NCBI GenBank assembly: GCA_043228905.1
Contig: JBHGNT010000013.1
Span: 13,330,001-13,394,000, forward strand
Direction of reading: 5' to 3'
Length of the DNA: 64,000 nucleotides
DNA from: Azolla caroliniana
Lineage: Eukaryota; Plantae; Polypodiophyta
The translations under genes and the position numbers were made by a program. Within the stretch, counting starts at the first letter, position 1, and every line of letters begins with the position of its first letter. The notes under the pieces were generated by a model. That model saw only the letters and a list, made by a program, of their open reading frames with translations. It was not told the DNA's origin and searched no databases. Of the stretch, positions 2,977-22,800 are shown in pieces.

Positions 2977-3011
2977 GTAACTGTTGCTATTAAGAAATAA
3001 AACGTTTCTTT
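2733..3011 (+). repeat. Copia polypurine tract (GGGGGAG, 2733-2739) and 3' LTR starting TGTCG at 2740; right end uncertain
   Basis: PPT directly followed by TG; TATA-like ctatataaa near 2847; (CT)n tract; 41-bp block repeated at 2891-2931 and 2971-3011, then abrupt join to LINE sequence. Confidence 0.7.
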
Positions 3012-4250
3012 CAAGAGCCACGGACTAAGGGATGGCTTTTCGACTCATTAGTGACCCCGTCCCTCATGTATGCATCAGTAGTATGGGCTCCAGGTCTACC
3101 ATCTTTCATGTGGACGCAATTGGAGAGACCTTTAGTGGTGATGTTATCACGTCAACTCCGAAGCAAATCGACAGTACCACATGACATTATTAGAGCGGAG
3201 TTTAGCCTACCCCCGATGTTAGTAGAAGCACTCTTTCAAGTGGTAGCTTTTATTCATCGGATACATAGTCAACCACAAGATAGGATATCCCGTCGAGCCT
3301 TTGAGGCATCCCGATCCTTACATGTGTCTGGAGACACCAACTCTTGGTATAGCATTGTGGTGAGTTGGTTATTTGCAAATGGCATAGACATTAATAACCT
3401 ACCTCCCCTTAAGTACAACCATGGGACTGATCAAACTTTAATCTCTCGTGAAGATCGTAATAAAGTGATACGCCAAGAAATATGGCAAATCTACACTCGA
3501 TACAAATGGATCACCCCACGAGAGCCACTCCCATCTAAAATGGTGTACTATAAGGAACACTTCTTGCACTTCTCTAAGTTAGGGTTTATTACACGACCAA
3601 GATACCTAGATACTTTCTTATCAAATGCACTAAGGGTGGCCATTGGACAACTTAGGATATCATCTCACCAACTTGAGATTGAGAATGGTCGAGCTAATAG
3701 AGTCCCTAGAGAGGAAAGGCTATGTAGGTTATGCCACATAGAGATAGAGGATGAGTATCACTTCACATGCAAGTGCCCAACTTATGCCGAGATACGGGCG
3801 GAATACCAAGACATACTAGGACCCTCTCCCACCCTCTCCAAACTATTAGATACCCCGAGTGTAAAGAGACTAGGTAGGTATATCTTAGAGCTAAAACAAC
3901 ATAGGGAGGATAAATTACAAAGTGTTAATCATAACCCTTTTACTACTCATCAACATGTACCTAGTGTAATTTTTCAGGAACATGGGGAGACGATGAATGT
4001 GGATACACTTATGCCGCTCGGCCTCTCCCTTGAGGAAGCAGAAATACAAAGAGCAACCAAACGTCCTCGGATGTTGGGCTTCAACACAAGTCAACGTGGA
4101 GTAGAAAAGATTAAGAAGATAAGGGAACGTGAGCTACGTCGACTCGAAGCTATGGTTGGGGTACCTCTTACATGGGGACCACGGGCCACATCCACATCAT
4201 GGCAACCCTTTGACCCCCCGCTTCTCTTCGAGAGACTTGGATGGAAATGA
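3012..4250 (+). mobile_element. Non-LTR retrotransposon (LINE) ORF2 C-terminal part, RTE-X/L2-like
   Basis: Open frame with WLFDSLVTPSLMYASVVW (post-RT region) and LRISSHQLEIENGR..ERLCRLC..EDEYHFTCKCPTY (CCHC-type C-terminal motif). Confidence 0.85.
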
Positions 4251-5280: not shown

Positions 5281-6095
5281 TGTCGTGCCTCTCGGCGCTG
5301 GATCATTACGTGAGTCGGGTGGGAACCGCTGGGGTTTTGGACTAGGAGAAAGGAGATCGTGAGATAGAGATGAATTATGAGTAGATAGCAAAGAGAAAGA
5401 TAAGAAACTCGTGAATCACACGAGTAGACTATATTAATTGGTACTTAGGTTGTTAAGAAAGAAGTAGATGCATAAATCGTGAATCCCACGAATAATTTTT
5501 ATATTGATCAATACTTAATCAAAAAAAAAAAACCAACCCTTATACATCTTTCTCTCCTCCTTATATAAGGACGAAAGAGGCTAAGCATAACTTCTTGCTT
5601 TTCTAAAGTGTTCATGCTCTCTAAATTTGCATGCTTTACTTTTCCCACTACGATTTCCTAAATTTAGCATTCATGCCCGCTAGATGTGCATGCGTAATTT
5701 TATTGGTGTGCATATAAATAAAGTTTTCACGCATTCTAAAAATGCATGACTTACCTTTTAATAAAGGTAGGTGAAAATAAAGGTTTTATAACCATTAAAT
5801 CTATTTTTAAAACACTTAGAATAAGTTAGTATAATGATAAGGCTGGAGTTTGTTTGTGTGGAGGTGTAGGGTTCGAATCTTGCCCTATGCACATAACAGA
5901 AAATTTAATGTTTCTTTTATTTACAATTGTGTCTCTTATTCCCGTAAGAGACTCTCACCGGCCTTCTTCATCCGGTTCTTCCTTGCCGATTCCTCCTTGC
6001 CGGTTTCTCTTCGTCCGGTTCTCACCGGGTATTTCATTCTCTATCCGGATGGACAAAATGCAATTTCCAAGTAGTGTGTAAATTACACTACGACA
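5281..6095 (-). repeat. 3' LTR of the Trp-primed gypsy element
   Basis: Direct repeat of 11759-12573 (about 30 differences by eye, mostly transitions); PPT AGAGGGGGTGAG on minus strand at 6096-6107. Confidence 0.95.
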
Positions 6096-9000
6096 CTCAC
6101 CCCCTCTAAACCCGCACATCCTCCGGTATGTGCCAAAGTTCCCGATGTTCTATATTTGCCTCCATCTGTATCGCTCTCCGAATCTTCCCTTATGTCGACT
6201 ACGAGTTGAAGTCCACTTTCTTCGCTATTCGCATCACCGCGATCTTTGTCCGGTTGCTCCTCATTGTCGGTCTCGTCTATGGCTACATAAGATTCGTTGT
6301 TAGTCCGCTTCTTGAAGATCTTCACCCGTTTCCCTGCTATAGGCACTCGTAGTATCGTTCCATCCAATTCACTTAGTCGGTAAGTTCCGTTGTCGAAAAC
6401 TTTCCGAACCTCATATGGGCCGAACCACCTTTTTGCGAACTTCCGCACCGTCGTATGTTGATGATCCAAACTACTGTCATAGACAATCACCTAATCTCCT
6501 TCTTCAATCTTCCGTGGTCATAGTCGGTGCTTGGTGTCGAACCGGCTTTTGTTCCGGAGTCGCGCTTCTTATTGTCGGCGTGACACTTCCGCTACATCTT
6601 TCGGTCTTCCCTCCAGTTGTCGTATCCGGACCGCTAGTAGTTCTTCCCGGCTCATCTCTTCCTTCCACGGTAACATTGTCCATGTCGCGATTGCGGTTTC
6701 CGTCGGCATTACCGGTGCTTGTCCGGTCATAAGTTCTGCTGGCATATAACCGGTTACGGAGCTATGCGTCGTCCGATCCGCCCATAGTGCATACAGGAGC
6801 ATATGCGGCCAATCCATCACCCTTTCGTCGCATGCTTTGGCAAGTGCTTTGACAATCGGACTATGTCCTCACTCGACCTTCCCGTTGGCTTCCGGATTGT
6901 ATGTCGTTGTTAGTGTTAACTGAACTCCATGTTTGGCGAAGAATCCCCTAGCTTTATCAGAGTCAAGTTCTCCCCGATCCGCAATCACCTGTCCTACGCA
7001 TCCGTACCTGCAAAACACTTCTTCCAAAAGAAATTGACATACTATAGAACATGTTTTTCTTCGTAGCGCCCGACCTTCTACTTGATTTGTGAGATCTTCC
7101 CGAGCTAACACCAAGTACTTCTTTTGTCCGATCCCGGTTGGCATGGCTACAATGTCGACCATCCATTTGAAGTTGATTGTCGGTGAGAATGTCGGATGTA
7201 ACTCATCTCGGTGTCAAACTCCGGAGTAGATTTGACACTTCTCGCAGCTTTCCGTGAACTCCGCGACATCTTTGTACATATTCTTCCACCAATATCTTTG
7301 CTTGATCTTCCCAAATGTTACTCATGTTCCCCAATGAACAACCCAATCAGATTCGTGAAATTCGGATTACCTAGTTTCGTTGCTCTTTTGTCCCGACTAC
7401 TCGAAGTGGTATGCCACCCGGTCTTTTCGGCTCCCTCCATAAAAATCCATTTTTCAAGAAGAACTTTCGGATTTGCCGTTTCTTACTTCGGATCTCGGCT
7501 CTCTTCTCTTTATTGTCCGATGATTCCTCGATTTCTCGTAGCATTTCCCGATCAACAAGCTTTCTCCCTCGTATTCTTCTTCCCGGAATTCTTGGATTAC
7601 GTCTACCCGGCATATGTGCTCCGAAGCAAAGTAGTCTTCGGAAACTTCTTCATTATTGGATTCAGTTATATCATCTCCAAACCGCGCCCTTGATAGCATA
7701 TCCGCTACATCATTGTCTTTTCCGGAGATGTGTCTTACCTCCAGATTAAGTGACTTAACATATGCAATCCATCTTAGCATAGCCACATCCGGTATTGTAC
7801 AACACCGCATCATCCCGAGTATCGGAAGACAATCCGTTTCGATCACTACTTCGGCTCCGATCAAATAATCTCGATTTGATTTGATTGCCGACACGACTCC
7901 CCATAATTCTCTTTTAACTTGTGCATATCCGCGTTGCCTTTCGTTGAGAACCTTTGCTCCAAATTGGATCGGATATCGCGAACCTTCCAGATCGGCTTGA
8001 TTGATGACCCATCTGATTCCGGTTGGACTTGTGTCAACCGTTACTATGATCGGTTGGTCATAGTTCGGCTTCTTTAGTGCTTCTGCCCTCCGTAGTGATT
8101 TCTTGAGCTTCTTCACGACTTTGGTATGCTCCGGTTTCCATTCAAACTTCTTACCCTTCCGCAACAAGTGATAGAGTGGGTCCGCTATATGTGCATAGTG
8201 CGGAATCCATATGTGGTAGAATGCACATGCTCCAAGAAACCTTCGAACTTCGGATTGTGCCTCGCATACTTCTTTCATAGCTTGAATCGCATCGATCTTG
8301 GTTGGTGACGGTCTTTGGCCGTAGGGCCCACATAGACGCCCGACTACCAATATTTCTTCTTGTCCGAATGCCGATTTCTCTCTAGAAAGTGTTAGATGCA
8401 CATCTTCTAACTTCCGTAACACTTTCTCACAATCACGGATATGGTTGACTACAAACCTTCGGCATCCCTGTTCATCCATAGCTTCATCTTTTTCTTCCAC
8501 CACACACCCTTTCATCAGAATGTCATCTAGGAACGGCATCGTTATCTCCGGTATGCAATCCCGAAGCACCTTGTTCATCGCATTCATCATATGTGCGACT
8601 GAGTTCGTCGCGCCTTGTGGTAGCGTACACATCCGGACTAATCCTATCGATGTCCGCATGGTAGTGATGTCTTGGCTCTCCACGGCTAGTTGGAATTGGT
8701 CATATCCTGAATATAGGTCTCCGATGGAGTATATCGCACGGCCGGCAAATGCTTCCGCAAATTCGTCCACTATCGGACCGACTCCGGAGTTCCGGATCGT
8801 GACCTTGTTTACCGGTTGCAAATCTTGAATAAATCGGAGTGACCCATTCTTCTTCGGAACCGTAAACCATCGATTTGAGTACGGAACATTTGATGGCTCT
8901 AGAATCCCCATCGCCACCTTCTCCTTGAGCAAGTCGATGACTTTCGGAATATGCGCCCGCGGCACCAAAATCGGCTTCGGGCTCCACGGCACATGGTCAA

Positions 9001-11720
9001 TCGTGAAGATCACCATTGGCTCCACTATCTTCGGATCAACGCACCCTATCTCGTTCGATGTGAATGCAAATGCTTTTCCATGTTGTTCCAGCATCTCACA
9101 AAACCGTTCTTCTTCTTTTTGTGAGAGGAAACCACCTCCACCGATCCGAAGTTTCTTTCGGGTCTCATCCGAGAAGGCATGTCCGATATCCATGGACTTC
9201 CGAAGTGTCGGATCCCCCGAGACTTCTTTCCTCTTTTGTTCGCTATCTGCGGGTAACGGTCTTGCGGCCGGTTTCACTTTCTTCTCCACGGTCTTGTATT
9301 TCGTAATTACCATTGCTTCTTCTTTGCGGAGCGCATCCGGCCCCATTTTCACAATGATCTCGTACATCTCGACCGACTCCACCGGAATTACCTGGTCTTC
9401 TTGGTTTTTATCTTCCGCGAGCTCTTCAAGCCGTTGTAGTGTGCTCCCATAGAACACTTCTTCGAGTATTCCCACGATTTCTTCGTCTTCTTTTATTATT
9501 GATGCCGACCGTAACTTATCCTCCACTTTTCGGTATTCTTTCTTCATTCCTCCGGTTACGGCCGTGTATGTGGATGCCCCATCCGGACCGATTCGTACTT
9601 GTTTTGCACCGAGAGGTTTCTTCCTGTGTGGGGTATCAGGGCTTCTCAGACTATCACTTCCCCAGTCCGCAACTGTCCGCTCTAAAAATCCATTCTTGTT
9701 TGGGACAAGAGCTCTCTCTTGTTCCTTTCATGATTTTCCGGCACCGTTAGGAATTGGACGGATTTCCCTCCGTTTTGGCTCCGAATTCGTTCAAAAGCCG
9801 AACCGCTATCGAGCACCTTCGTCTCCATCCGTGATGTCGTGATAAAAGGTTGCCCGAGGATCATGGAGTGTGAGACCTCGTCTTGTACGAAGAAATTTTG
9901 GTCGATCTCGACATCCCCGATCTTCACCGTCACATCCGGACAAGCCGCAAATAGATCTTCCGTTGCTTTAGTGGCCGCCCGGATCTTCCACCCATGATTC
10001 GTGTTAATAGGCCACTTACCCTTCCGGTAGAATTCCTTGGACATCAAGTTGATCTCCGATCAGTGATCGTCCAATGCTAGCACGGGTTCTTTGATGTTAC
10101 CGATTCGGACCGGAGTCTCCGTAGTTGCGCGTGCCCAGTGTGGCTTTGTGTAGTGAGAATTCGGTATTTCGTCCTCCAATTCGGTGTCATTCATTAGAAC
10201 GGTATTTGCATTCACCCTTTGAGCGTTCTCCTCCGTACTTTGCCTTTTTCTCTTCACGAGATCCACAAGAAGATCGTGGAACTCCTTCTTCGCTATTCTG
10301 AGTAATTCTCGAAGCGAAAAATCTACCCGGCTATCGAGGATTCTCTCCTCGAACACCTTTTTCAAGTCCGTTTGTTGTTCGATGTCCGAGGCGAGCTTGA
10401 ATGCCGGAATCATCTTTTCTTTTCCCTTACCTCCGGAGTTCCAGCTTTCTGGTGTCTTCGATGGACCGGCCGCCTCATCCGTGCGCCATCGCTTCTCATC
10501 TACATACACTTCATGCAATTGGCACAAAGCAAACACGCTATTCTTATTGACGGGGCACTCCCATGCCATAGCTTCCCGGATGCCTTCCGCGGTGCTTCGG
10601 ATCTCGTTAGAGTCGGTTTTCTCGGTGTTTTGTAGCACTTCCGGCAAAAAAGACACCTTTGCTCCCGATGACTCCCCGACACGTATTCCCGCGGTTGTCG
10701 CGTAATTGTTCTTCGCCGCTATTTCCTCCTCTAGGACCTTCTTCATGCCGCCTTTTCGAAAGTTCGGTCGGAGCGGCTTCCGAGAGTCCATCGAATGAAT
10801 CCAATTTCCCTCGTAGTAGATAAGATCCCATCGTAACACCTCCTTGTGCTCGTCGCAATCCCTCCGATCGTGTTCGGTGCTATCACACCATATACATCGA
10901 CGGTCCATATACTTGGAGTTTGTGGGACGGTCTCCCGACTTCTTCACCATCACGATTTTCAGATTCTCCATATCTTTCAGCAACTGCTCCACCGTGGTTG
11001 CGTCAATCCCCTTCTCGGTCGTAGTCTCTCGAGCCCGCAATTGATGGTCCTCCAATCCGAATCTCGGTTTCGGAATCGGTTCTGAAACCCTCTTCTCTTC
11101 ATTAGCAAGCCACTACCCCCTCTTCGTGTATCGCAGGACGATATCCCGCACGCTTTCCCACGTTTCGGTGAGGCCGCTTTCGGTGGTCGTGTCCTCCAGA
11201 AGCACTCCGAGATCTTTCCGGTCCCAGATGTCCACGGCTCGCAAAAACATGATGACTTTGACCGATGCAAGAATAGTTTGATCTCTCGCGGACAACCCCC
11301 CGAACCGACTTTCAAATGACGAAAACACTTCGAGGACCTTCAGTCCCTTACCTGGTGTTTCCACCCAATCTTCGAATCCCCTCCGCGTTGCCTTGGAGAA
11401 GTCCTCGATGGCGAACGTGGTTTTAACGCTTCTTCAAATGCTTCCCACGTCGGATTTTGCTGTTGTAACCCGTGGATACTCCCTTGAAGCCCGTCGGTCG
11501 CCACCCGGTTGAAGGATGTCACTTGCAGTCCTTCCGAAATCCGGCACCGGAGCATCTCTGCCTTGTAGTCCTGCAAATATCGCGACACATACTTACCGTT
11601 GAATTGCCCGTTGCGTTGCACGAGCCGCTCTACTACTGTTGAAATCTCCGACATCGCGTGTTGTTCTTGTAGCATCCGCTCGAACATCGCCATCATATTG
11701 TTAGCTTGTTGATTCTCCAT
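6083..11720 (-). pseudogene. gag-pol polyprotein of the Trp-primed gypsy element, disrupted
   Basis: Gag with CIWCDSTEHDRRDC knuckle; protease ALDDH*SEINLM; RT YSGYDQF..LPQGATNS..PFLDD; RNase H VDTSPTG..ETDC; integrase DRGE..YNPEANGKVE and GPY motif (WFGPYEV). Several stops and frameshifts. Confidence 0.9.
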
Positions 11721-11735
11721 CTCCTTGCCACCCGT

Positions 11736-11754
11736 ATTCACGTCGGGTTCACCA
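11736..11754 (-). promoter_or_regulatory. Primer-binding site complementary to tRNA-Trp 3' end
   Basis: Plus strand ATTCACGTCGGGTTCACCA matches the 3' end of plant cytosolic tRNA-Trp plus CCA as I recall it; 4 nt from the 5' LTR. Confidence 0.85.
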
Positions 11755-11758
11755 CTTG

Positions 11759-12573
11759 TGTCGTGCCTCTCGGCGCCGGATCGTTACGTGAGTTGGGTGG
11801 GAACCGCTGGGGTTTTGGACTAGGAGAAAGGAGATCGTGAGATAGAGATTAATTATGAGTAGATAGCAAAGAGAAAGATAAGAAACTCGTGAATCACACG
11901 AGTATACTATATTAATTGGTACTTAGGTTGTTAAGAAAGAAGTAGATGCATAAATCGTGAATCCCACGAATAATTTTTATATTGATCAATACTTAATCAA
12001 AAAAAAAAAACCAACCCTTATACATCTTTCTCTCCTCCTTATATAAGGACGGAAGAGGCTAAGTATAGCTTCTTGCTTTTCTAAAGTGTTCATGCTCTCT
12101 AAATTTGCATGCTTTACTTTTCCCACTACGATTTCCTAAATTTAGCATTCATGCCTGGTAGATGTGCATGCGTAATTTTATTAGTGTGCATATAAATAAA
12201 GTTTTCACACATTCTAAAAATGCATGACTTACCTTTTAATAAAGGTAGGTGAAAATAAAGGTTTTATACGCATTAAATCTATATTAAAACACTTAGAGTA
12301 AGTTAGTATAGTGATAAGGTTGGAGTTTGATTTTTGTGGAGGTGTAGGGTTCGAATCTTGCCCTATGCACGTAACAAAAATTTTAATGTTTCTTTTATTT
12401 ACAATTGTGCCTCTTATTCCCGTAAGAGACTCTCACCGGCCTTCTTCATCCGGTTCTTCCTTGCCGATTCCTCCTTACCGGTTTCTCTTCGTCCGGTTCT
12501 CACCAGGTATTTCATTCTCTATCCGAATGGACAAAATGCAATTTCCACGTAGTGTGTAAATTACACTACAACA
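11759..12573 (-). repeat. 5' LTR of the Trp-primed gypsy element
   Basis: Direct repeat of 5281-6095, adjacent to PBS. Confidence 0.95.
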
Positions 12574-15500
12574 ACGTGAGATCATGATATTGATTAATGT
12601 TTGCCCATGATATGTTTACATCACGACATGATGTTATGACTATTTGTTTGACCTTATCCTATTTCTTTGCCAAAAATAACCATTCAATGGCTCAAAATAA
12701 CGACCCGAAGTCATTCGCTCAAGCGGAAGGATCTCAAGGAAATCCTCCTAGACAAATGTCCATTGAGATGTATTTTTCGCAAATAACCCAATACCTTAGT
12801 TTCACCGCTCAACAGATGACCAAACTTCGGCAATCTCAAAGTGCTCTCGAGGCACGTGTCATTAGTTTATAATGAGAGACTAATAGACCTGATGAGCGGC
12901 AGGGTGAGCCATCATTTGTCGTTAAGCCATTTACGAGAGAAAAAAAGGAAAGAACCGAAGAAGCAATCTACACATGCCTAGGCCGATGGGAGTCTCATTT
13001 TGAGATCTATCCCACGCTAGATAGTACGAAGATTGCATATGTCGGCCGAGAACTAGGGGGTAAGGTTGCCGCCTGGTGGCGTGCGCTCCGTACTTGGGGA
13101 AATTGCCCGATACCTGGACAGATTTTGTCACAGTTTTCAAGGGCCAATTTCTGCAACCTCCCTCTCGAACCGAGGCAGCACAAGCTTTAATGAACCTCTC
13201 TAGCAGGAATTTTTCCTCGCTAGAAGACTATGTCCACCATGCTAGAACCCAAATCCAAAAATCGGGTCTAGAAGGGACAATTGGTTAATAGCTTGTTTTG
13301 TCAATGACATCCCCAATTCGAACTATCACTGGATAGTGCAGGATAAGGATTCAAAATCCTTCGAATAGAGTGTTGAAATAGTTCTTCGCTATCAACGCAC
13401 TTCGAAGAAGGACCACAACAAACCCAACGAAGCCCCCGGGACTAAGCAGTCGCAATTCGCTGGGAAATGCAAGACACCCAATGAATTCATGGATCGCGAT
13501 TGTAAGTGATAACATCCTTTTTGTGTATTCTACAAAAAGAAGGGTCATACAAAAGAGCAATGTCGAAAGCTCCAACGGAAAGAGCACGATAGCAAAGCTA
13601 AAGATGCAGACCATAAAGGTCAAATTCCTAATGTCCTTTAGGTCTATACACATCATTTAAGTAATTGTCAATGTTCTTTCCCTCAGTATGTATTGGGTCC
13701 CAATGATTTACTTCGTGCAAACGGGTATATCAATGGATCTCCCGTACAATTTTTGTTTGATTCGGGAAGCTCACACAACTTTGTGAATGATCGTTTGGTT
13801 CAAATATGGGGAATCCAAACCACCGTAAGTGATCACACCTATACGGTGCACTTGGTTGATGGAAGAGTACAATACATCAACAAGGCGATTCATTCATTAG
13901 GAATTTCAATTGACACTTATATAGAGGAAGTAGACTTCCATGTAATGAATCTTTGTACCACTGATGTAATACTGGGTTATCCCTGGTTCTATAATAAAAT
14001 CTCTTCTTTATCTATCGATTGGGTTCATCAGTCCATTTCCTTTGTACTGAACGATTGTACTCATTTTATTCAATGTGTAAAAAAACAATCCCTCTCGATT
14101 GTTTCCTCTCCATCAATATCCGAGTTGTCTTGTTCTACTTTATTTTATTGTATACTTGATCCGGACATTCACATTTACAATATTGATAATGTCTCGGTTC
14201 AATTAACATATTTTGAACAACAACAACTTGATGAAATCTTAAATGATTTTCATGATGTTTTTCCAAGTGAACTACCAGATGGGTTACCTCCTAAACGTAA
14301 TATAGACCATCATATAGATATTGTACCTGGCGTTGCACCATAAGTATACCTCCTTATCGCTTAAGTCGATCCGAAGAGGATGAGGTATCTAAGCAACTCA
14401 AGGACTATTTACGAATGGGTTATATACGTTATAGTAAATCTCCATGGGGTGCACCCGTTCTCTTGGTTAAAAAGAAAGAGGGCACATGGCGTATGTGTAT
14501 TAATTATCGACGCTTGAATAAAGTGACGATCAAGAATTCGTATCCATTGCCCCGGGCTGACGATCTAATTGACCGTCTCCAGGGAGCTTGGTATTTTACG
14601 AAACTTGATCTCCGTACTGGCTACCATCAAATTTGTATAAGTGAGGATGATGTTCCTAAAACAACATTTTGTACGCACTATGGCCATTATGAGTTTTTGG
14701 TTATGCCTTTTGGTTTGACCAATGCTCCAACTACATTTCAACAAGAAATGAATGACATTTTCCAAGAACAACTTGGCAAATTTGTCGTTATTTTCTTGGA
14801 TAATATTTAAGTTTATAGCCGTACATTACAAGAACATGCTAAACCTGTCTGCTTTGTTTTACAAACATTGCGTGACAAATAGTTTTATGCGAAGATCTCA
14901 AAATGTGAGTTCTTCAAGAAATCAATTACTTATCTTGGACATCTCATAACCGAAGGAGGAGTTGAAATTGATCCTTCTCGCATTGATAAAATCAAGCTTT
15001 GGTCCACTCTTTGGAATATTCGAGAAGTTCGATCATTCCTTGGTTTTGTCAGGTTTTTGTGAAAATCCCTTTGTAATTACTGCCAATTGACAACGCCATT
15101 TATTGATTTTCTAAAAGGTCAAACGCGTAAGTCTACAAAACCTATTGTCTGGAATGCTACACTAGACCTCACCTTTAAGGAACTCAAGGACCTGGTGTGC
15201 AAGGCTCCTTCAGTTCTTTTACCTAATCCTTCAAAACCTTTTGAGGTTGAAACCGATGCAAGCGATTATGCTATAGGTGTTGTCTTATATCAAGATGGTA
15301 AACCAATAGCATTCGAGAGTAAGAAACTTGATTCTGCTCAATGTCGGTATATCGTTCAAGAAAATGAATTATTTGCAGTTATACATGCGCTCAAAACATG
15401 GCGCCATTATCTTTATGGAAATTGCTTTGTGGTAACTACGGACCACGAGTCCTTGAAATATTTTTGTGACCAACAAGACCTGAAAGGTCGTAAGGCACGA

Positions 15501-16675
15501 TGGGCTAATCTCATCCAGGACTTTGATTTTCCATAAGATATCGTAAAGGTTCCATGAACACTGTCGTTGATGCACTAAGGCGCATCCGTGAAGTTAACAT
15601 GCTTAGCTTCACTGAAATATCCTTAGATCTTTATGATCACCTTCGAGGAAAGTATCCTGATGACAGTTATTTCACAAAATACTGGGCAAGAGTTTAGTCT
15701 GGAACAGACACCACCACATCCTTGAAGGAATACTTCCACATTGTTAACGGTCTGCTCTACCGTAATGGGAAGGTTTGTGTTCCAGATTTGCCTGAGCTCA
15801 AAAAGAGAATTCTTTTTTAATGCCATGATGCACCCACAATAGGGCACCCTGGAATACATCATACACTCATTCTCATCTCCACTCAATTCTATTGGCCTAA
15901 GATGCGCCCTAACATACATAGTTATGTGACTAAATGTCACCAATGTCAGGTTAACAAAGCCGAGCGACTTAAAGCTGCAAGACCTTTACATCCCTTGGAC
16001 ATTCCCAATAATAAATGGGAAAGTATATCCATGGATTTTATTGTTAGCCTTCCTCGCACCCAAAAAGGCCATGATGCCATCTGGGTTGTGGTTGATAGAC
16101 TAACTAAAATGGCCAGATTTATTGCTACTAAAACCACGGTAATAGCTCTTGAATTGGCTTACCAATTCATTGACGAGTTATTTCGTTTTTATGGGTTACC
16201 GATGGATATTGTGAGTGATCGAGATCCAAAGTTTACAAGTGACTTCTAGATGCAAGTCTTCACGAAGTTAGAAACTACATTGAGCATGAGCTCCACGGAT
16301 CATCCTCAATTTGATGGACAGACAGAACGAGTAAATCAAATTATTGAGGACATGCTTCGAGCATACATTGGTGCAAAACCAACAAAATGGGAACGTTATC
16401 TCCCAATTTTGGAGTTTGCTTATAACAGCTCCAAGCATACGTTGACGAGATATAATCCTTTTATGTTGATGTATGGTTTTGAGCCACGAGCCCCAATTGA
16501 TATTAATACACATCATGATGAGTTGCGAAGTACGCAAAACTTTCTTCGGGATACGCAAGATATGTTGCATATTGCATGAGATAATATAAAAATTGCTCAA
16601 GATAGAGCGCATTTTTATGCCGATCATCATAGGCAACCTCGTGTATTCAACCCTGGACAGAAGGTATTTTTACGT

Positions 16676-17346
16676 TGTCGTGTTGCTACGCGCGTGCGTG
16701 GAGAAGGGCGGGACCACAGGGGTCTTGGACTAAGGAGTAGAGGAGAAGGAATCGGACACGGAATGGAAACTTTGCTCAAGAAGAGGAAGAATGAACAAGA
16801 GGAAGATGGAGACAAGATGAACAACAAGATGTATTAAAACGAGATGAACGATTACAAAATGGTAGCCGCATAGGCCGCACCAAACGACTACTCGAAACCC
16901 TAACCCTAACCCTAACGCTCGACCTATGTGGTATACCTCGCACACTCAAAATAGGCAACCCCCACAATGGTGCCTTCCCTCTCCTTTTATAGCACAAGGA
17001 GGGAAGACCGTTTACAAACGTGAGACTAAAATATCCCCTTTCATTCAAAGGGGATATTTGCCTTGATTTGGGGGAGGGTGAGATTGATGGCCCCTTTAAC
17101 TCCCACCTCCTCACAAACAACTAGGTACCTATGTACCGCATAGTACCTCTCTCTCTCTCTCTCGCGTGGATGTGCGCACAAGACCACATCGCCTTTATAC
17201 CTTAGGGATCTTATGGGGCATTTCTAGCACCATACCCTTTACCCCTATTATTATTACAAATACATTATGTACGTGTGCAACGTTGCAGATCGCACTTTGG
17301 CTCTCATTGCTCGGGTTTCCGCTCGTGGACGAAAATCTTCACGACA
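16676..17346 (-). repeat. 3' LTR of the non-autonomous element
   Basis: TGTCGTG..CACGACA termini; about 12-14 differences from 20810-21478 by eye. Confidence 0.95.
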
Positions 17347-20300
17347 TCCGCCCCCACCTAACCGCACATCCACCGGTATGTGCCAAAACATAGGGGAGAG
17401 AACACGAGATTTTCGGCCACGACGACCGGCCGAGTTCCTTAGCGTCCTCGTGGGCCCGCCCGGTTTTGTCCTCCACTTCGAGCAAGACCACCCCGTCCAC
17501 ACGAACCACCACCGCCTTCCGGTCCACCATCCTCGCCGACTGGTCTCGAACCGTCGGCGCCACCCGATCCGCCACACTCGACGATGTTCGCCGAGTTATT
17601 GCCTCCACCCGATCCGCCACGTCCACCGTGGATCCTTGAACCACCGACTATATCCGACCCGTTGTATACGATGCCCGTGCTTTCCTCCACGTTCGGTCCT
17701 CCCAAACGTCGTCGCCGACCCGGCTGCTCTTCCTTTGTCCGCCTCGTATATCCTCCGGATGCGCTCCCGGTCGTATGTCGGAGTCCACCCTTTGCGTGCC
17801 ACACATCTCGGCGTGCCGACTCTCTCCGCTCCGCGCTTGCCTTCCATAGGTTTTCCCCGTTGTTCGCCGTGCTCTCTCAGGTAGAGTGTACTGTCATCCC
17901 GACCTCCGTGTCGGTGTCCCTCGAGGCTCTCGTTACCGCTTCACCTCGACTTGCGCCCTCTTGGCCCGCTTGGCCTTGCATGCCCTCCGGGAAGCCGCGC
18001 TTCCTCTTCCCGGCGTGTAGCCCGTTACTCTCTGCGCACCTTCTTCGGTTCTCAAGACACGACTCTCCGCTCATGCCGATCGCGCTCGGCCCATGTCGTC
18101 GGTCTTGGTGTTTCGCCGCACCGTCCTTCGTCCCGCACTTGCCTCTCTAAGGCTTGACCCGACTGTCATCGTCGGTCAATCGTTGTCGTCCATCGGCCGT
18201 ATGCATGCTTGTGTCTTGGCCCTCCACCGGCCGTATTGCATGTGTCTCGTGTCGCGCTTCCGCCGTAGACCGACCTCCGCGTCGGTCTCCAACTCCTCGC
18301 CGCCACCCACCGTTTCTTCGGTCTTCCTTCGATCCGCGACCGCCGATGCCTCTCGGATAGGTGTGGAGGGTTCCTCCCACTCTCGGTCCACCACCGAGTC
18401 CTCGCCTCTCAAAGGCTCAATCGGTCCACCGTTTCCGGTCACTCGTTGACGCTCCCCCGAGTGCATGGTTGTTCCTTGACCCTCCGTCGGCCGTAGTGCA
18501 TGCTTCACTTCACGCTCATCCGCCGTAGACCCGACCTCCGCATTGGTCTCTTCGTCCTTCCCACACCGGGCATCCGCTCCGGTACCCGATTCCGCATTGT
18601 CTTCCAACTCCTCGCCGCCACCCGCCATCTCTTCGGTCTTCCATTGATCCGCAACCGCCGAAGTCTCAAGCATAGGTGTGGAGGGCTCCTCTTGCTCTCG
18701 GCCTCTCACCGACCCGTACTCGTCGTGCCCGGTTAGCCTCCTTCTCACTCTCACCGGCTCCCACCGTAACCGTACCCGGCCGGCTACGGATCAATCAAAC
18801 AATCCCAGTCTTGCCAGCTTCCTTCGGTTCGGGCCCGGTTGACCGGCCCCCGCTTCACTCTTCTTCCGCTCCACCTCCCGGTCGGGTCGGATTACCTACC
18901 GGCTTATCTTTCGGTCGGGTCGGTTCCCGACTCGCTCCTCGATGCCGCTCCGGACCTCTCCTTCGGTCTTTTCGCACGTGCCCACTCCGGGCCTCTCATC
19001 CTCATGGCCATCGCCCATCTCCCCGGTCTTATGTCCGTGCTCGGGCGCAACCGCCGAAGTCTCCGGTCCCGGTGTCGAAGGATCTCGCCTCCGTCCGCTA
19101 CAAACCTCCTCTTCGTCATTTTGGTTGCCCGCCTTGCCGCCGCCACCGTCCGTCTCTCTAGGTCTCACACCGGCTCTCGGGCCGGTTGCCGGAGTCTCTA
19201 GGACCGGTGTGTGGAAGGTCGCAGCACCGCCGCTCATCTCCTCTTCTTCCTCAATTTTTCCAGCCTCGAGTATGCTCGCGAAATCCTCGTAGAATGTTTC
19301 GGGCAACCGCGTCCCAAAACTTTCGCCCACTCTCGAAGTGGCGTCCATTGCTCCGTAGATATCAGCCTCATCCATGGTCGTCCTCTTCCCACAAGTCGAG
19401 AGGGTCGCTCGCTCCGCACCCTCTCCCACATCGTCTCCGTGGTCGCCCACCTTGCCGCCGCCACCGTTCGTTACCCTAGGTCTCACGCGGGCACTCGGGC
19501 CGGCCGCCGGGGTCTCTTGAACCGGTGCGCGTAAGGTAGCAACGCCGCCGCTCGTCAATGCTATGCCTGTAGCCACCTCCATTCGGACATCATCGTCCGT
19601 GGCTACCCCTCCTCCGTATATGCAAGCATCAATTATACTTGCCGCCTCCTCTTCCACGGTCTCCTTACCGTTGTCTCGGTTGCCCGCCTTGCCGCCGCCA
19701 CCGCCTGTCGCTCTAGGTCTCACGCCGGCAATCGGGCCGACCGCCGGTGCCTCTAAGGCCGGTGTGTGTAAGGTCGCGGCACCGCTGCTTGTCTCCTCCT
19801 CACTCGATGTTTCGAGCCGCCATGTCCCGAATCCGTAGTTACCGGCCTCCATGGTCGTCCATTCGCCGCAAGACGAGAGAGTCGCTCTTTCCGCACCCTC
19901 TCCCATGTCACCATCGTGGTCGCCCGCCTTGCCGCCGCCACCGTCCGTCACTCTAGGTCTCAGACCGGCTCTCGGGCCGGTCACCGGAGTCTCTAGGCCC
20001 GGTGTGCGTAAGGTCCCAGCACCACCGCCCGTCTTCTCCCCGCTCGATGTTTCGGGCCTCCATGCCCGAACACCCTCATGTCCGCTCGAACCGGCGATCG
20101 CCGCCTCACCGTCCCCGACCTCGTCCTCAATCGATCTTTCTCCGCATGTCGAGAGGGTGGCTCGCTCCGCACCCTCTCCCGTGGTACCGATGTACCATTC
20201 TCTTTCGACCTCCTCATCCTCCGATCTGCTCGGGCCCGACTCCGCAATAAGCCCTTCTTCGGCTTCGACTTGTGCCTCTACGATCTCGTACGCTTCCCGC

Positions 20301-20765
20301 ACTAAGGCTTTGATGTCGAGCTCCTCCGAACCGATTTGCGTTGAGCTCTCTTTCGGCGGTAGTGCGTAGTCGGTCGCCGCTCGCGGGCCGCGTTGTGGCC
20401 GACCGCCTCTCATCGCATTGTATGCACGCCCATTCCACCTCGTTCCAATCTTCGGTGAGGCCGTACGCCCCTTCATCGTCTTCGAGGTAGGGAAAAATGG
20501 CCATTCTCCCCCTTTCGTTGACCGACTTCAAGAATAGTGGGACCTTGTCCGCCCCCACCGATTCTTGATCTCGGACCGAAAGTTGGGAAAACCAGAGATC
20601 GAACTCCCGGAATGCCTTCATTGCGCTTCGAGGAGCCTTTGCCGACGACACCCATAGATCGAACTCGCGTCGATCGTACTTGTACGCCTCTTCCCGTCTT
20701 TCTCTCCTTCTTGCGAAATCCCTTGCCATTCTCATAATTACTTCCGCGATGTCTCCGGCTTCCAT
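17339..20765 (-). pseudogene. Truncated gag followed by long Glu/Gly/Thr/Ala-rich repetitive ORFs (frameshifted chain)
   Basis: ORF 20214-20792 aligns by eye to gag of the 5281-12573 element (FSQLSVRDQ..KVPLFLKSV..LED..GLTEDW vs FGGLSARDQ..KVIMFLRAV..LED..GLTETW); then ORFs 18896-20476, 18176-18754 and 17339-17644. Confidence 0.75.
19131..20030. repeat. Four dispersed copies of a ~105-bp GC-rich module inside the non-autonomous element
   Basis: ccttgccgccgccaccg..ctaggtctca..cgggccg..ccggtgtg near 19131, 19450, 19687 and 19927; encodes TPxLETPxxGPxAGxRPRxTxGGGGKxG on minus strand. Confidence 0.9.
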
Positions 20766-20787
20766 CTCCTTCCTCCCTTGCCGCCTC

Positions 20788-20805
20788 TTCACGTCGGGTT
20801 CACCA
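20788..20805 (-). promoter_or_regulatory. tRNA-Trp primer-binding site of the non-autonomous element
   Basis: TTCACGTCGGGTTCACCA, identical to 11737-11754, 4 nt from the LTR. Confidence 0.85.
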
Positions 20806-20809
20806 AATA

Positions 20810-21478
20810 TGTTGCGTTGCTACGCGCGTGCGTGGAGAAGGGCAGGACCACGGGGGTCTTGGACTAAGGAGTAGAGGAGAAGGAATCGGACACGGAATGG
20901 AAGCTTCGCTCAAGAAGAGGAAGAATGAACAAGAGGAAGATGGAGACAAGATGAACAACAAGATGTATTAAAACGAGATGAACGATTACAAAATGGTGGC
21001 CGCATAGGCCGCACCAAACGACTACTCGAAACCCTAACCCTAACCCTAACGCTCGACCTATGTGGTATACCTCGCACACTCAAAATAGGCAACCCCCATA
21101 ATGGTGCCTTCCCTCTCCTTTTATAGCACAAGGAGGGAAGACCGTTTACAAACGTGAGACTAAAATATCCCCTTTCATTCAAAGGGGATATTTGCCTTGA
21201 TTTGGGGAAGGGTGAGATTGATGGCCCCGTTAACTCCCACCTCCTCACAAACAACTAGGTACCTATGTACCGCATAGTACCTCTCTCTCTCTCGCGCGTG
21301 GATGTGCGCACAAGACCACATCGCCTTTATACCTTAGGGATCTTATGGGGCATTTCTAGCACCATACCCTTTACCCCTATTATTATTACAAATACATTAT
21401 GTACGTGTGCAACGTTGCAGATCGCTCTTTGGCTCTCGTTGCTCGGGTTTCCGCTCGTGGACGAAAATCTTCACGACA
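20810..21478 (-). repeat. 5' LTR of the non-autonomous element
   Basis: Direct repeat of 16676-17346, adjacent to PBS. Confidence 0.95.
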
Positions 21479-21884
21479 ACGTGTACCTCACAATTCTAGG
21501 ACATTGTCTAAGGGTAAGTGTGCTAAGTTAGCCCCACGGTTTTGTGAACCTTTTACAGTCCTCAAACGCATTGGGTCCTCAGCCTATCGTCTTGCTCTTC
21601 CCGATGTCGTTGAAATTCATCCAGTTTTTCATGTGAGTCGTCTAAAAGAACTTCTAGGTTCTGGCAACAATACAGTTACAACTGAAACTCTGGTTACTTT
21701 TGAAGAATTATCTTCTAAACCACATGTATCAGAAAGAATTCTCGATGTTAAAATAAAAAAATTACGTGCTAAAGAAATCCGAGAATTTAAAATAAAATGG
21801 ATGGATAAATCAATAAAAGATGCCACATGGGAACATGAAAATACACTCAAAACTAACTTCCCTAACTTTCCATTACAAGAGTGT

Positions 21885-22341
21885 TGTTACGGGCATGACC
21901 ATATAATATCCCGTGGTGAGAATTTATTGTAGTATTCTATACACGTGGATAAGTGTGAGGGTTAAACGAGAGTGTAAAGAAGGGGAGGATTACTTTTAAT
22001 CCTCGGGATTGAGACAACCCATTAGGCCAAGTGTGAACTTGTCTGGGGGCCTTGGGTATCGCTATAAATAAGAGGCCTAACTACCCTCATTTCATTATCT
22101 TGTTGACTATGTCGAGACTTTGTCTTGTGGTGGGTCAACTCTTGTAGCGAGCGCGCCAGCACCAGGTACGACTTGATGCCACGACGGTGGTATGGGACGT
22201 CGATCGAGGCTTGAGTCCATGTCGATCCCTTCGCTCGGGGGTGGTCAAGTGGATCAGCACCCTTCTTTTTCTCTCTCCTTTCTATCTATCTATACATATT
22301 CTATCCTTATCTAATGCTTACATTAGTTCATGTCTCTAACA
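21885..22341 (+). repeat. LTR-like segment (TGTTA..TAACA) after the chromodomain; no partner in window
   Basis: 5-bp inverted termini and TATA box ctataaata near 22062; no PPT, TSD or matching second copy found. Confidence 0.55.
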
Positions 22342-22800
22342 TCCTCAGTCCACAAGAGCGATTGATCTCTATCCACCTATCTGCCTATAGCCCTCCTATC
22401 CCCCACTTCAGCCAAGTCTAGGTAGTCCTCAATCCACATGAGCGATTGATCTCTATCCCCCTATAACTCTCATGTCCCCCACCTCAGCCAAGTTCAGGTG
22501 GCCCTCAGTCCACAAGAGCGATTGATCTCTATCCGCCCATAGCCCTCTTGTCCCCCACCTCAGCCAAGTCCAGGTGGCCCTCAGTCCACAAGAGCGATTG
22601 ATCTCTATCCGCCTATAGCCCTCTTGTTCCCCACCTTAGCCAAGTCCAGGTGGCCCTCAATCCACAAGAGCGATTGATCTTTATTCGCCAATTGCTAGCT
22701 CGTACACGATGGCCCTCCTGTCCCCCACCTCAACCAAGTCTAGGTGGCCCTCAATCCACATGTCAAGCGATTGATCTTTATCCATCGATTGTTAGCTCAT
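22342..22800. repeat. Tandem minisatellite, ~6 copies of a 76-bp unit
   Basis: ccctcagtccacaagagcgattgatctctatcc recurs near 22342, 22425, 22501, 22577, 22653 and 22747. Confidence 0.92.

Follow-up and report, generated by a model that had tools for sequence, protein, structure and literature searches.

A decayed pol-less LTR element of Azolla caroliniana with a predicted lone capsid lobe and a frame-kept tail, possibly mobilized in trans

The stretch of DNA under analysis (64,000 nucleotides of the Azolla caroliniana genome, hereinafter the window) harbors, at positions 16676-21478 of the minus strand, an LTR element of 4,803 bp devoid of pol. Its 5' LTR (669 bp, 20810..21478) and its 3' LTR (671 bp, 16676..17346) differ at 13 of 669 sites (K2P 0.0197). 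An 18-nt primer-binding site (PBS, 20788..20805), 4 nt away from the LTR, is complementary to the 3' end of tRNA-Trp, as checked against the genomic tRNA-Trp genes, and the polypurine tract (PPT, 17347..17364) embeds the stop codon (17358-17360) of the element's open reading frame; all these features lie on the minus strand. The target-site duplication ACGT (16672..16675 and 21479..21482, strandless) flanks the element, whose insertion point is the integrase C-terminus of a decayed chromovirus located on the plus strand (13642..21932), with protease, RT and integrase before the insertion and SH3 and chromodomain after it. In agreement with the original prediction, no pol domain was disclosed in the element either by Pfam (8 frames scanned) or by tblastn. 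Antisense frames of 235-391 codons are present at its 3' end because the sense frame is poor in T.

The reading frame starts with an N-terminal helix (residues 1-26, 20688..20765, minus strand) ending at the junction of an in-frame N-lobe loss, and continues with a region (residues 28-125, 20391..20684, minus strand) that is modeled as a lone capsid C-terminal lobe left by that deletion. The AlphaFold2 model of this region (pLDDT 85) was aligned by VIA-align to the C-lobe of Arc (Z 8.5, rmsd 2.9, 79 aligned residues), to residues 93-186 of the Copia capsid (Z 8.4, rmsd 2.6, 88 aligned) and to Drt2, a Ty1 C-lobe restriction factor (Z 6.2, rmsd 3.4, 86 aligned). A sequence search against solved structures gave no match, and Foldseek retrieved nothing at E 0.001, although capsids topped its lists. 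The product thus modeled consists of a single capsid lobe with no CCHC knuckle; zinc knuckles are present in 3/3 autonomous gags vs. 0/4 tail proteins. The remainder of the same frame is a long G/E/R/T/A-rich tail (17361..20390, minus strand), broken in this copy by a 17-bp deletion near 20,380, with four stops and four frame switches overall, and embedding internal repeat modules (18197..20180, minus strand) spaced by 237, 240, 276, 315, 318 and 477 bp, with one spacing of 260 bp. The "truncated gag" initially recognized here was rightly assigned to gag, whereas its nature, i.e., a lone C-lobe heading a frame as long as the interior, had been missed.

A second element of the same lineage, referred to as family A, occupies positions 5281..12573 of the minus strand. 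It is a gag-pol element, itself disrupted by frameshifts and stops, with no chromodomain in its C-terminal frame and with 815-bp LTRs that differ at 28 of 814 sites (K2P 0.0353); it is also flanked by an ACGT 4-bp duplication, a feature of both elements absent from the original prediction. The unequal length of the LTR bodies and their divergence, estimated by eye at about 2% and 4%, were borne out, but the two elements do not differ significantly in LTR age (Fisher p = 0.11), so that the more recent movement of the pol-less element is not upheld. The two elements have in common the tRNA-Trp PBS at 4 nt from the LTR, AAGGAGATGGA at the gag start, a U5-side block (48 nt, 83%, E 1e-7), a homologous but diverged gag piece (34% over 76 aa, E 2e-9) and, in general, the LTR ends, even though one end of each is substituted (TGTTGC in the element, ACAACA in its neighbor). 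However, these signals, which had been taken as the mark of this pair, are common to the whole lineage.

The pol-less element belongs to a multi-copy family (family B). Its leader matches 82 sites in the genome, which rules out a single-copy deletion derivative, and its gag start was found in 64 of the 79 anchored copies examined. Pol is absent from all the LTR-paired copies (0/45 leader-anchored, 0/11 PPT-anchored), ruling out for these a pol of their own; 34 unpaired copies fall outside this scoring, and the pol matches near 12 of them are antisense or behind a break, probably so in L134 and L060. L068 contains a second, complete gag. The tree of 61 copies is star-like, of the burst type (median p-distance 0.047), the median LTR K is 0.020, copy length ranges between 3.8 and 5.9 kb, and the target duplications are CG-centered in 32/32 clean pairs, 22 of which are identical on both sides. 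On the whole, the prediction of a long-lived, multi-copy, pol-less lineage mobilized in trans is supported.

As far as the frame is concerned, none of the 37 paired copies of this family genome-wide retains it intact (the best single ORF covers 77%), and all five copies with LTR K <0.01 are broken. The number of breaks does not rise significantly with LTR K (p = 0.24, intercept 2.8), and only 12 of 27 old copies preserve an in-frame distance from ATG to PPT (p = 0.15). A stop at codon 32 shared by five copies and the 17-bp deletion shared by three do not cluster on the tree, which is poorly resolved, and young-looking copies have no near twins; hence, the mobilization of broken templates is not supported. 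A singleton-vs-shared test within the family gave p = 0.03 for the lobe and 0.24 for the tail start, values confounded by C>T hot spots, and p = 0.30 on a 35-copy subset.

Among the related families, some keep both lobes and others a single one. The N-lobe was lost in frame in family B and in L171, the C-lobe was lost in frame in L097/L087/L183 and in L077/L180, and it is likewise missing in L106; the junctions of the single-lobe losses differ from each other. The microhomology GAGGC flanks the N-lobe loss, being present at both breakpoints in two-lobe relatives. The lone lobes are under purifying selection (dN/dS 0.2-0.46): the 95% interval lies below 1 in 12/12 non-independent pairs of lone C-lobes (0.34-0.46) and in 7/7 pairs of lone N-lobes (0.22-0.42).

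In the tails, which span 450-1,200 residues in the different families, it is the reading frame that is conserved, whereas the amino acids drift. In six copies of young relatives, a single ORF fills 98-99% of the interior, which measures 2.3-4.3 kb. The ORF frame contains no stops vs. 25/21, 28/29 and 15/20 in the alternative sense frames, while neutral change predicts 10.3; open frames are maintained over about 20% divergence, and internal duplications and self-matches are in register in 18/18 cases (three open ORFs). Open frames longer than 1,000 aa hold 25 of the 150 scored matches, and a database protein (P0002) is a single open frame of 1,188 aa. The tail dN/dS is mostly 0.6-1.1 (0.6-1.07 in 13 comparisons with L105), with 0.94-1.06 for comparisons inside the young family and 1.0-1.5 over the last 110 codons; values below 1 are found in some pairs (0.53-0.77; L097-L183 0.74, interval 0.62-0.88), and the tail start gives 0.46-0.75 in some pairs. 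Between family B and L105, the tail dS (0.26-0.29) is lower than the capsid dS (0.64-0.68), so that either tail exchange or an RNA-level constraint is possible. Homologs of the tail were found neither in Pfam nor in the Atlas, nor in autonomous elements beyond the 26-28 nt proximal to the PPT; the database matches are five long proteins of the same kind and otherwise mostly short pieces.

These data allow one to weigh the possibility that the tail is an RNA-level element, i.e., a packaging length or signal, and that both the open frame and the low dN/dS of the lobes have merely persisted from recent two-lobe ancestors, the elements being passive riders. The 37 broken copies out of 37 and the low tail dS of some pairs agree with it, and recombination between in-register modules could yield in-frame indels. 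Nevertheless, we regard it as very improbable: families with a common deletion junction, at dS 0.13-0.50, keep dN/dS at 0.22-0.46, the open frames hold across the above divergence, and no stable structure was detected in 17 sampled interior windows of 120 nt, corresponding to half of the sequence.

A stronger competitor, and the main one, is that translation protects the RNA: the transit of ribosomes up to the PPT would remove an untranslated tail of 3 kb that would otherwise invite nonsense-mediated decay or siRNA bodies, with packaging relying on RNA signals alone and the lobe being retained for a reason that is minor or unconnected. RNA with a long 3' UTR is subject to decay. The location of the ORF stop in or just past the PPT in every open copy, the tail dN/dS close to 1 and a GC3 (0.54-0.68) near that of the autonomous gags (0.62-0.73) fit this scheme, as does the routing of poorly translated plant transposon RNA to siRNA bodies described in 10.1101/2020.04.08.032953. 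However, it accounts neither for the dN/dS of 0.2-0.46 of the lone lobes nor for the A-type lobe of L106 (see below), and it gives no reason why a shorter, tail-less RNA was not favored; we consider it unlikely as the main cause, albeit compatible with the explanation preferred below.

Selection on the lobes and the fold match to Drt2 are what would be expected if the lobe-tail protein were a trans-acting capsid additive or competitor, comparable to the role proposed for the TR-GAG/Quinta Gag or to Ty1 p22; by joining or obstructing helper capsids, the protein would bias packaging toward pol-less RNA. The tail would then be a charged, likely disordered scaffold of which only the composition matters, and indeed acidic and basic blocks alternate and a W/R-rich end is common to the families; a disorder index failed to distinguish the head from the tail, so that disorder is deduced from composition only. 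Gag-only partners have been proposed as Gag suppliers (PMC11302176, PMC9744471). On the other side, a good acting in trans also serves the copies that do not encode it, so that selection on the open frame of each lineage would be weak; moreover, the W/R-rich end shows dN/dS 1.0-1.5 and the net charge of the tail varies between -53 and +35. This makes the idea rather improbable.

Regarding the helper, the data point to an autonomous, GC-rich clade within the lineage as the likely partner, instead of the neighboring family originally proposed. The PPT junction of the element is 60-69% identical to that of the GC-rich clade (8 copies) vs. 48-49% to that of family A, and the corresponding figures for the U5-PBS junction are 58-73% and 49-50%. 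The clade has the TGTCGTGAAGA start in common with the element and an identical PPT, which recurs in 10 of its autonomous copies, whereas family A has a different PPT and only six terminal bases in common. LTR K in the clade (0-0.085 in 11 copies, three of them at 0.019-0.038) overlaps the median of family B. The tRNA-Trp primer site is identical too, but it is common to all families of the lineage and thus gives no pointer to the partner. The C-lobe is 39-40% identical to that of the proposed helper, 35% to that of family A and 57% to that of a two-lobe pol-less family. Genome-wide, the 17-nt core of the primer site has 5,561 occurrences; among the first 44 sites, which were classified, about half belong to the GC-rich clade, two to family A, and 14 (about a third) to pol-less elements with a lone lobe and tail.

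That family A is nonetheless the helper is suggested by the tRNA site, target preference and U5 block that it has in common with the element, and any available helper may serve non-autonomous elements (PMC13570524). Given its poorer fit to the element ends, its scarcity and its having a partner of its own, this seems to us improbable. Such a partner is the young pol-less family L106 (76-84%), with at least 40 copies at 99-100%; the 3' parts of the copies compared with L106 are unlike it. The N-lobe of L106 is A-type (68% identity to A vs. 26-27% to the GC-rich clade) and groups with A (94/92), while its tail has patches 74-87% like the tail of the clade of family B.

Poly(A) reads in the sense orientation cover the interior of related elements, and 14 reads cross the PPT-LTR joint (three runs of one study); reads matching this copy at 99% are few (12/230, 8/169 and 16/684).

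The explanation that we tentatively prefer, holding it possible but somewhat short of probable, is that a pol-less family with a lone C-lobe and a frame-kept tail, of which the element is a decayed member, is moved in trans by a GC-rich helper, each RNA being tethered by the lobe nascent on it. An LTR-driven transcript would cross the PPT into the 3' LTR, as the related RNA does; the helix and the lobe would be translated first, followed by some 3 kb of tail, whose frame is observed. The lobe, still linked by the ribosome to its own mRNA, would bind capsid lobes at the assembly site, standing in for the lost zinc knuckle as RNA recruiter. The protease, RT and integrase of the putative helper would then act on the common tRNA-Trp site, PPT and LTR ends, leaving the observed CG-centered 4-bp duplications. 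According to this tether, what would count in the tail is that it is long and open, and not which residues it has. Nascent-peptide tethering, and cases in which translation matters instead of its product, are described for RNA viruses (PMC4395149). Several points weigh against this explanation: the 0/37 intact frames together with the 5/5 broken young copies, the C-lobe identity to the proposed helper of only 39-40%, the tail pairs with dN/dS <1 and the 12/27 in-frame ATG-to-PPT distances, and the few RNA reads at 99% to this copy. Capsid-lobe contacts in Ty1 are subfamily-specific (PMC12530519), which weighs against lobe-helper binding; lone C-lobes poison assembly in yeast Ty1 (PMC8458377) and mini-Ty1 donors are mobile in yeast without any gene product (PMC4974528), both weighing against the tether.

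A broader and more doubtful proposal is that a third of this Gypsy lineage might consist of hitchhikers using a cis-translational tether, in which any lobe would serve as hook, followed by 1.3-3.6 kb of stop-free filler, and the cassette could be moved behind the lobe and LTR ends of a new helper, thus switching host. How the RNA of pol-less LTR elements enters foreign particles, and the role of Gag in gag-only elements, are open questions (PMC4350172, PMC8704663, PMC13570524). In this respect, the genome contains a series produced by natural deletion: families with both lobes, families reduced to the N-lobe or to the C-lobe, and one apparent change of helper. Some of them have near-identical young copies, and the series separates selection on capsid lobe, open frame and tail residues, which are usually confounded. 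If the tether were true, half a capsid would suffice for hitchhiking, and a retrotransposon would use the translation of meaningless sequence as a signal for its replication; on the broader proposal, these elements would be to retrotransposons what translation-dependent defective interfering (DI) RNAs are to RNA viruses. Since the half-capsid elements have no Pfam match at all, domain-based annotation would class them as non-coding.

The way of life of the element appears to resemble that of TR-GAG and Quinta, within a Phygy-like lineage. TR-GAG elements (PMC4350172; mobility in PMC8704663) likewise have LTRs, PBS, PPT, TSD, several copies and a Gag-like ORF without pol. Family B has all these signals in at least two copies, and its Gag similarity is not accompanied by protease, RT, RNase H or integrase. 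However, TR-GAGs are shorter than 4 kb (PMC4350172), and the Gag precursor of TR-GAG1 (433 aa) has a zinc knuckle and no internal duplication (PMC4350172), whereas the element, at 4.8 kb, has a single lobe without a knuckle, followed up to the PPT by a tail of about 1,000 residues built from repeats. The wheat pairs RLG_Quinta/RLG_Cereba and RLG_Sabrina/WHAM/Wilma involve old gag-only Gypsy elements having PBS, PPT and LTR ends in common with a diverged helper; Quinta carries an additional domain of unknown function and is regarded as supplying a whole Gag, helper switches are reported for Angela, and neither single-lobe families nor a drifting frame-kept tail are reported in the passages considered (PMC11302176, PMC9744471).

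Phygy (PMC6317226) has the NCGN 4-bp duplication, the tRNA-Trp primer, the lack of a chromodomain and a coding region filling the interior. These features recur in the present lineage; among the precomputed domains of relatives of the helper pol, 120 of which were listed, there is no chromodomain. Phygy is described from Physcomitrella only, at 7.7-10 kb and with no mention of pol-less partners in the text seen (PMC6317226), whereas most of the autonomous copies found here (6.9-8.1 kb) are shorter; close RT relatives, at about 70%, exist in the liverwort Riccia. An isolated C-terminal capsid domain from an LTR retrotransposon is also found in Ty1 p22/p18 and Drt2, which block assembly and limit copy number (PMC8458377, PMC12530519); here, by contrast, a lone lobe belongs to an element that has itself multiplied, and there are also families with the N-lobe only. 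The DI RNAs of mouse hepatitis virus (PMC4395149) are, like the tail elements, helper-dependent and maintain an extended open frame, the product of which seems to be of no importance, but they belong to RNA-virus replication, whereas reverse transcription and integration operate here and the N-terminal lobe is under protein-level selection. A literature search, with subscription journals and bioRxiv supplements outside its coverage, retrieved no account of single-lobe, long-tail elements. Pol-less hitchhikers bearing gag are already known from TR-GAG and Quinta; what appears to be new is the combination of a lone lobe with a tail that drifts while its frame is kept.

On the minus strand of the window, the element lacking pol spans positions 16676-21478; its LTRs measure 669 and 671 bp, and a 4-bp target duplication (ACGT) flanks it. 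The neighbouring gag-pol element, belonging to family A of the same lineage, is located at 5281-12573, with LTRs of 815 bp and an ACGT duplication as well. The primer site, the U5 block and the gag similarity (34% over 76 aa) described in the original prediction were all recovered, and the primer site is complementary to the 3' ends of genomic tRNA-Trp genes. The element had also been regarded as probably the younger of the two; the LTR pairs carry 13 differences (K2P 0.0197) in the element and 28 (K2P 0.0353) in the neighbour, which does not amount to a significant age difference (p = 0.11). The window copy harbors a 17-bp deletion near 20,380 and, in all, four frame switches and four stops. 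It has inserted into a decayed chromovirus, whose integrase it interrupts at the C-terminus, and no LTR pair was found for this host; both elements lie at ACGT sites in or just before this one chromovirus (12574-21932). In Physcomitrella, the commonest nesting pair reported is Phygy into Tcn1 (PMC6911290). A tandem array of 76-nt units (22377-22756) is located to the right of the host element, and the element LTR contains short CCCTAA telomere-like repeats and a CT microsatellite (20760-21060 and 16890-16920). Positions 1-2545 and 2994-4250 hold what we take, from familiar motifs, to be a decayed copia-type pol and the 3' end of an apparent LINE ORF.

The family to which the element belongs is multi-copy and devoid of pol, as originally proposed. 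The 44-nt leader pattern matches 82 genome sites; the sample consisted of the window copy and 79 examined loci, and the gag start of the element is present in 64 of the 79 anchored copies. Both LTRs fall within the examined stretch in 45 copies (37 of the element's family and 8 of sister families), all of which lack protease, RT and integrase in the interior. In a separate sample anchored on the PPT junction, pol is absent from all 11 LTR pairs, and from the last 3 kb of the 10 unpaired sites. A star-like topology is seen in the tree built from 61 copies, and the median LTR divergence (K) of the family is 0.020. The target duplication has a CG centre in 32 out of 32 clean family pairs; 4-bp NCGN duplications and tRNA-Trp priming are among the Phygy traits given by Neumann et al. 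(PMC6317226). Two more autonomous families of the lineage (L078 and L099, with interiors of 38% and 48% GC) have the primer site 3-8 nt from the LTR end, and L078 shows open frames and a K of 0.0009. Matches to the tRNA-Trp 3' end also occur in tandem arrays (G000:C8:17796786-17823371, with a period of ~1.2 kb; C16:4989495-5105657, with three genes confirmed in one stretch; C5:10105608-10112201).

In other copies, a long tail follows the gag piece without a change of frame, reaching 781 aa in one analysis and 971 aa in another. The young relatives possess one ORF that starts just past the primer site and stops inside the PPT, with a length of 1,421 aa in L105 (whose capsid region is predicted to be two-lobed), 1,417 in L177, 1,249 in L172, 1,143 in L183, 984 in L178 and 751 in L171, corresponding to 98-99% of interiors of 2.3-4.3 kb; in L097, the ORF (1,024 aa) covers 89% of the interior. 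The ORF is open in five of the seven such copies with K < 0.01 and in 17/19 copies of the L106 type (the partner of family A lacking pol); for comparison, pol is unbroken in 7/9 young autonomous copies. The database protein P0002 (1,188 aa), which an assembler may have composed as a majority of copies, begins and ends like the proteins of the element's family; P0005 (893 aa) is organised alike, with a best identity of 76-78% to any scored match in the Azolla caroliniana genome. The other sense frames contain 15-29 stops each versus none in the tail frame, neutral change between L105 and L097 would predict 10.3 stops in the tail, and the internal duplications of three open ORFs are in register in 18 cases out of 18.

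The frame is kept, the tail residues are largely free and the lobes are constrained. The tail dN/dS is 0.6-1.07 versus L105, 0.53-0.96 versus L097 (some comparisons being below 1) and 0.94-1.06 inside the young family, with 1.0-1.5 in the last 110 codons; between the element's family and L105, the tail dS is lower than the capsid dS. No stable RNA structure was detected in the 17 interior windows sampled. That the open frame serves as a shield for the RNA is rather unlikely in our estimation, and it can hold together with the tethering of RNA discussed below. Capsid regions have a dN/dS of 0.26-0.49 versus 0.08-0.13 in autonomous gag. Between families with a common deletion junction, and assuming a single origin per junction, the values are 0.34-0.46 for lone C-lobes and 0.22-0.42 for lone N-lobes, with 19/19 bootstrap intervals below 1 (the pairs being non-independent).

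Some results run against the tethering model preferred below, among them the tail values under 1, the low tail dS versus L105 and the low C-lobe identity to the proposed helper. No whole copy of the element's family was found in the genome, the whole-interior frame is kept in just 12 of 27 old copies, and breaks show no significant rise with LTR age. The five copies with the most similar LTRs are all broken and, since they also lack near twins, LTR homogenisation may have occurred in them; mobilisation of the family from broken templates is possible. That the open frame and the low dN/dS of the lobes are mere leftovers of two-lobed ancestors is very improbable.

The head of the ORF is a predicted capsid. 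Residues 1-210 of L105 are predicted to adopt a two-lobed capsid fold (pLDDT 86), which matches dArc1 with Z 9.9 (rmsd 7.5, 158 aligned; Z 8.9 and 8.4 for the separate lobes), and residues 28-125 of the element match capsid C-lobes (Z 8.5 with that of Arc, 8.4 with Copia); for folds made of helices, Z values of this size are moderate, and the assignment is carried by the position in gag and by the agreement of the first 37 structure matches of the element lobe, all capsid or Gag domains. The element's family has lost the N-lobe in frame, with a GAGGC microhomology at the junction, and L171 has lost it at a different one; the C-lobe has been lost at one junction in L097, L087 and L183 and at another in L077 and L180. 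The CCHC knuckle of autonomous gags is absent from all the tail proteins examined. The lobes of the tail families form one clade (100/99, both trees) with the exception of L106: its N-lobe falls with family A, at a support (94/92) slightly below the starred level. Over patches of 55-110 nt, the L106 tail is 74-87% identical to the other tails, which suggests that a tail might have been joined to an A-type 5' end. Since the C-lobe of the element is 57% identical to that of the two-lobe family lacking pol versus 39-40% to that of the proposed helper, it may dock on the capsid of the former. A trans-acting role of the lobe-tail protein, as capsid additive or competitor, appears improbable.

With 5,561 occurrences in the genome, the 17-nt core of the primer site is useless for identifying the partner. 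About half of the 44 primer sites classified among the first 46 on contig C1 belong to a GC-rich autonomous clade, two to family A and 14 (32%, interval 19-48%) to tail elements lacking pol. The PPT is identical between the element and the GC-rich clade, junction identity is 60-69% to this clade versus 48-49% to family A at the PPT and 58-73% versus 49-50% at the U5-PBS, and helper ages overlap those of the element's family; these signals point to the GC-rich clade as the probable helper, whose named RT relatives are from the liverwort Riccia (~70%). The neighbouring family A, the partner first envisaged, is disfavoured by these junctions and has its own partner in L106, with 76-84% junction identity; no fewer than 40 copies of L106 are 99-100% identical along 821 bp. 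L106 and L150-L168 are very young, and most of their ORFs pass the PPT, stopping 48-72 nt inside the 3' LTR. L094 (G000:C1:4178800-4188799), a 4.1-kb element without pol or tail match and with the gag and PPT of another family, may represent a non-autonomous type of its own.

A single study provided three poly(A) runs, possibly of another strain or species, in which 230, 169 and 684 reads match the element with an identity of at least 85%. They are mostly of its sense strand (assuming the usual stranded library) and cover 28-30 of 30 bins, and 14 of them extend from the PPT into the LTR. Only 12, 8 and 16 reads are 99% alike, so that the reads derive from relatives; L105 gives the same, thinner picture. 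Opposite-strand reads pile on a 200-nt tail piece (window 19997-20193; L105:7710-7826), with unrelated flanks that are the same in each of the three runs; the piece is therefore carried in antisense by a different transcript, which could give rise to silencing RNA.

The reading that we prefer, to which we assign slightly under even chances, is that the ORF would be translated, its lobe would bind capsid, putatively that of the GC-rich helper, and the RNA would be tethered to the particle through the lobe. Such a model covers the sufficiency of either lobe, the loss of the knuckle, the indifference of tail residues and the A-type lobe in the partner of family A. One source (PMC4395149) offers a precedent in RNA viruses, with nascent-peptide recruitment and translation-dependent defective RNAs. 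No paper describing a single lobe with a long tail was found in the literature searched, mostly outside subscription journals. Ty1 p22/Drt2 resembles the element lobe in structure only, and TR-GAG differs from the element in size and in having a whole Gag; in its way of working, the element is like TR-GAG and Quinta (PMC4350172, PMC11302176, PMC9744471, PMC8704663).
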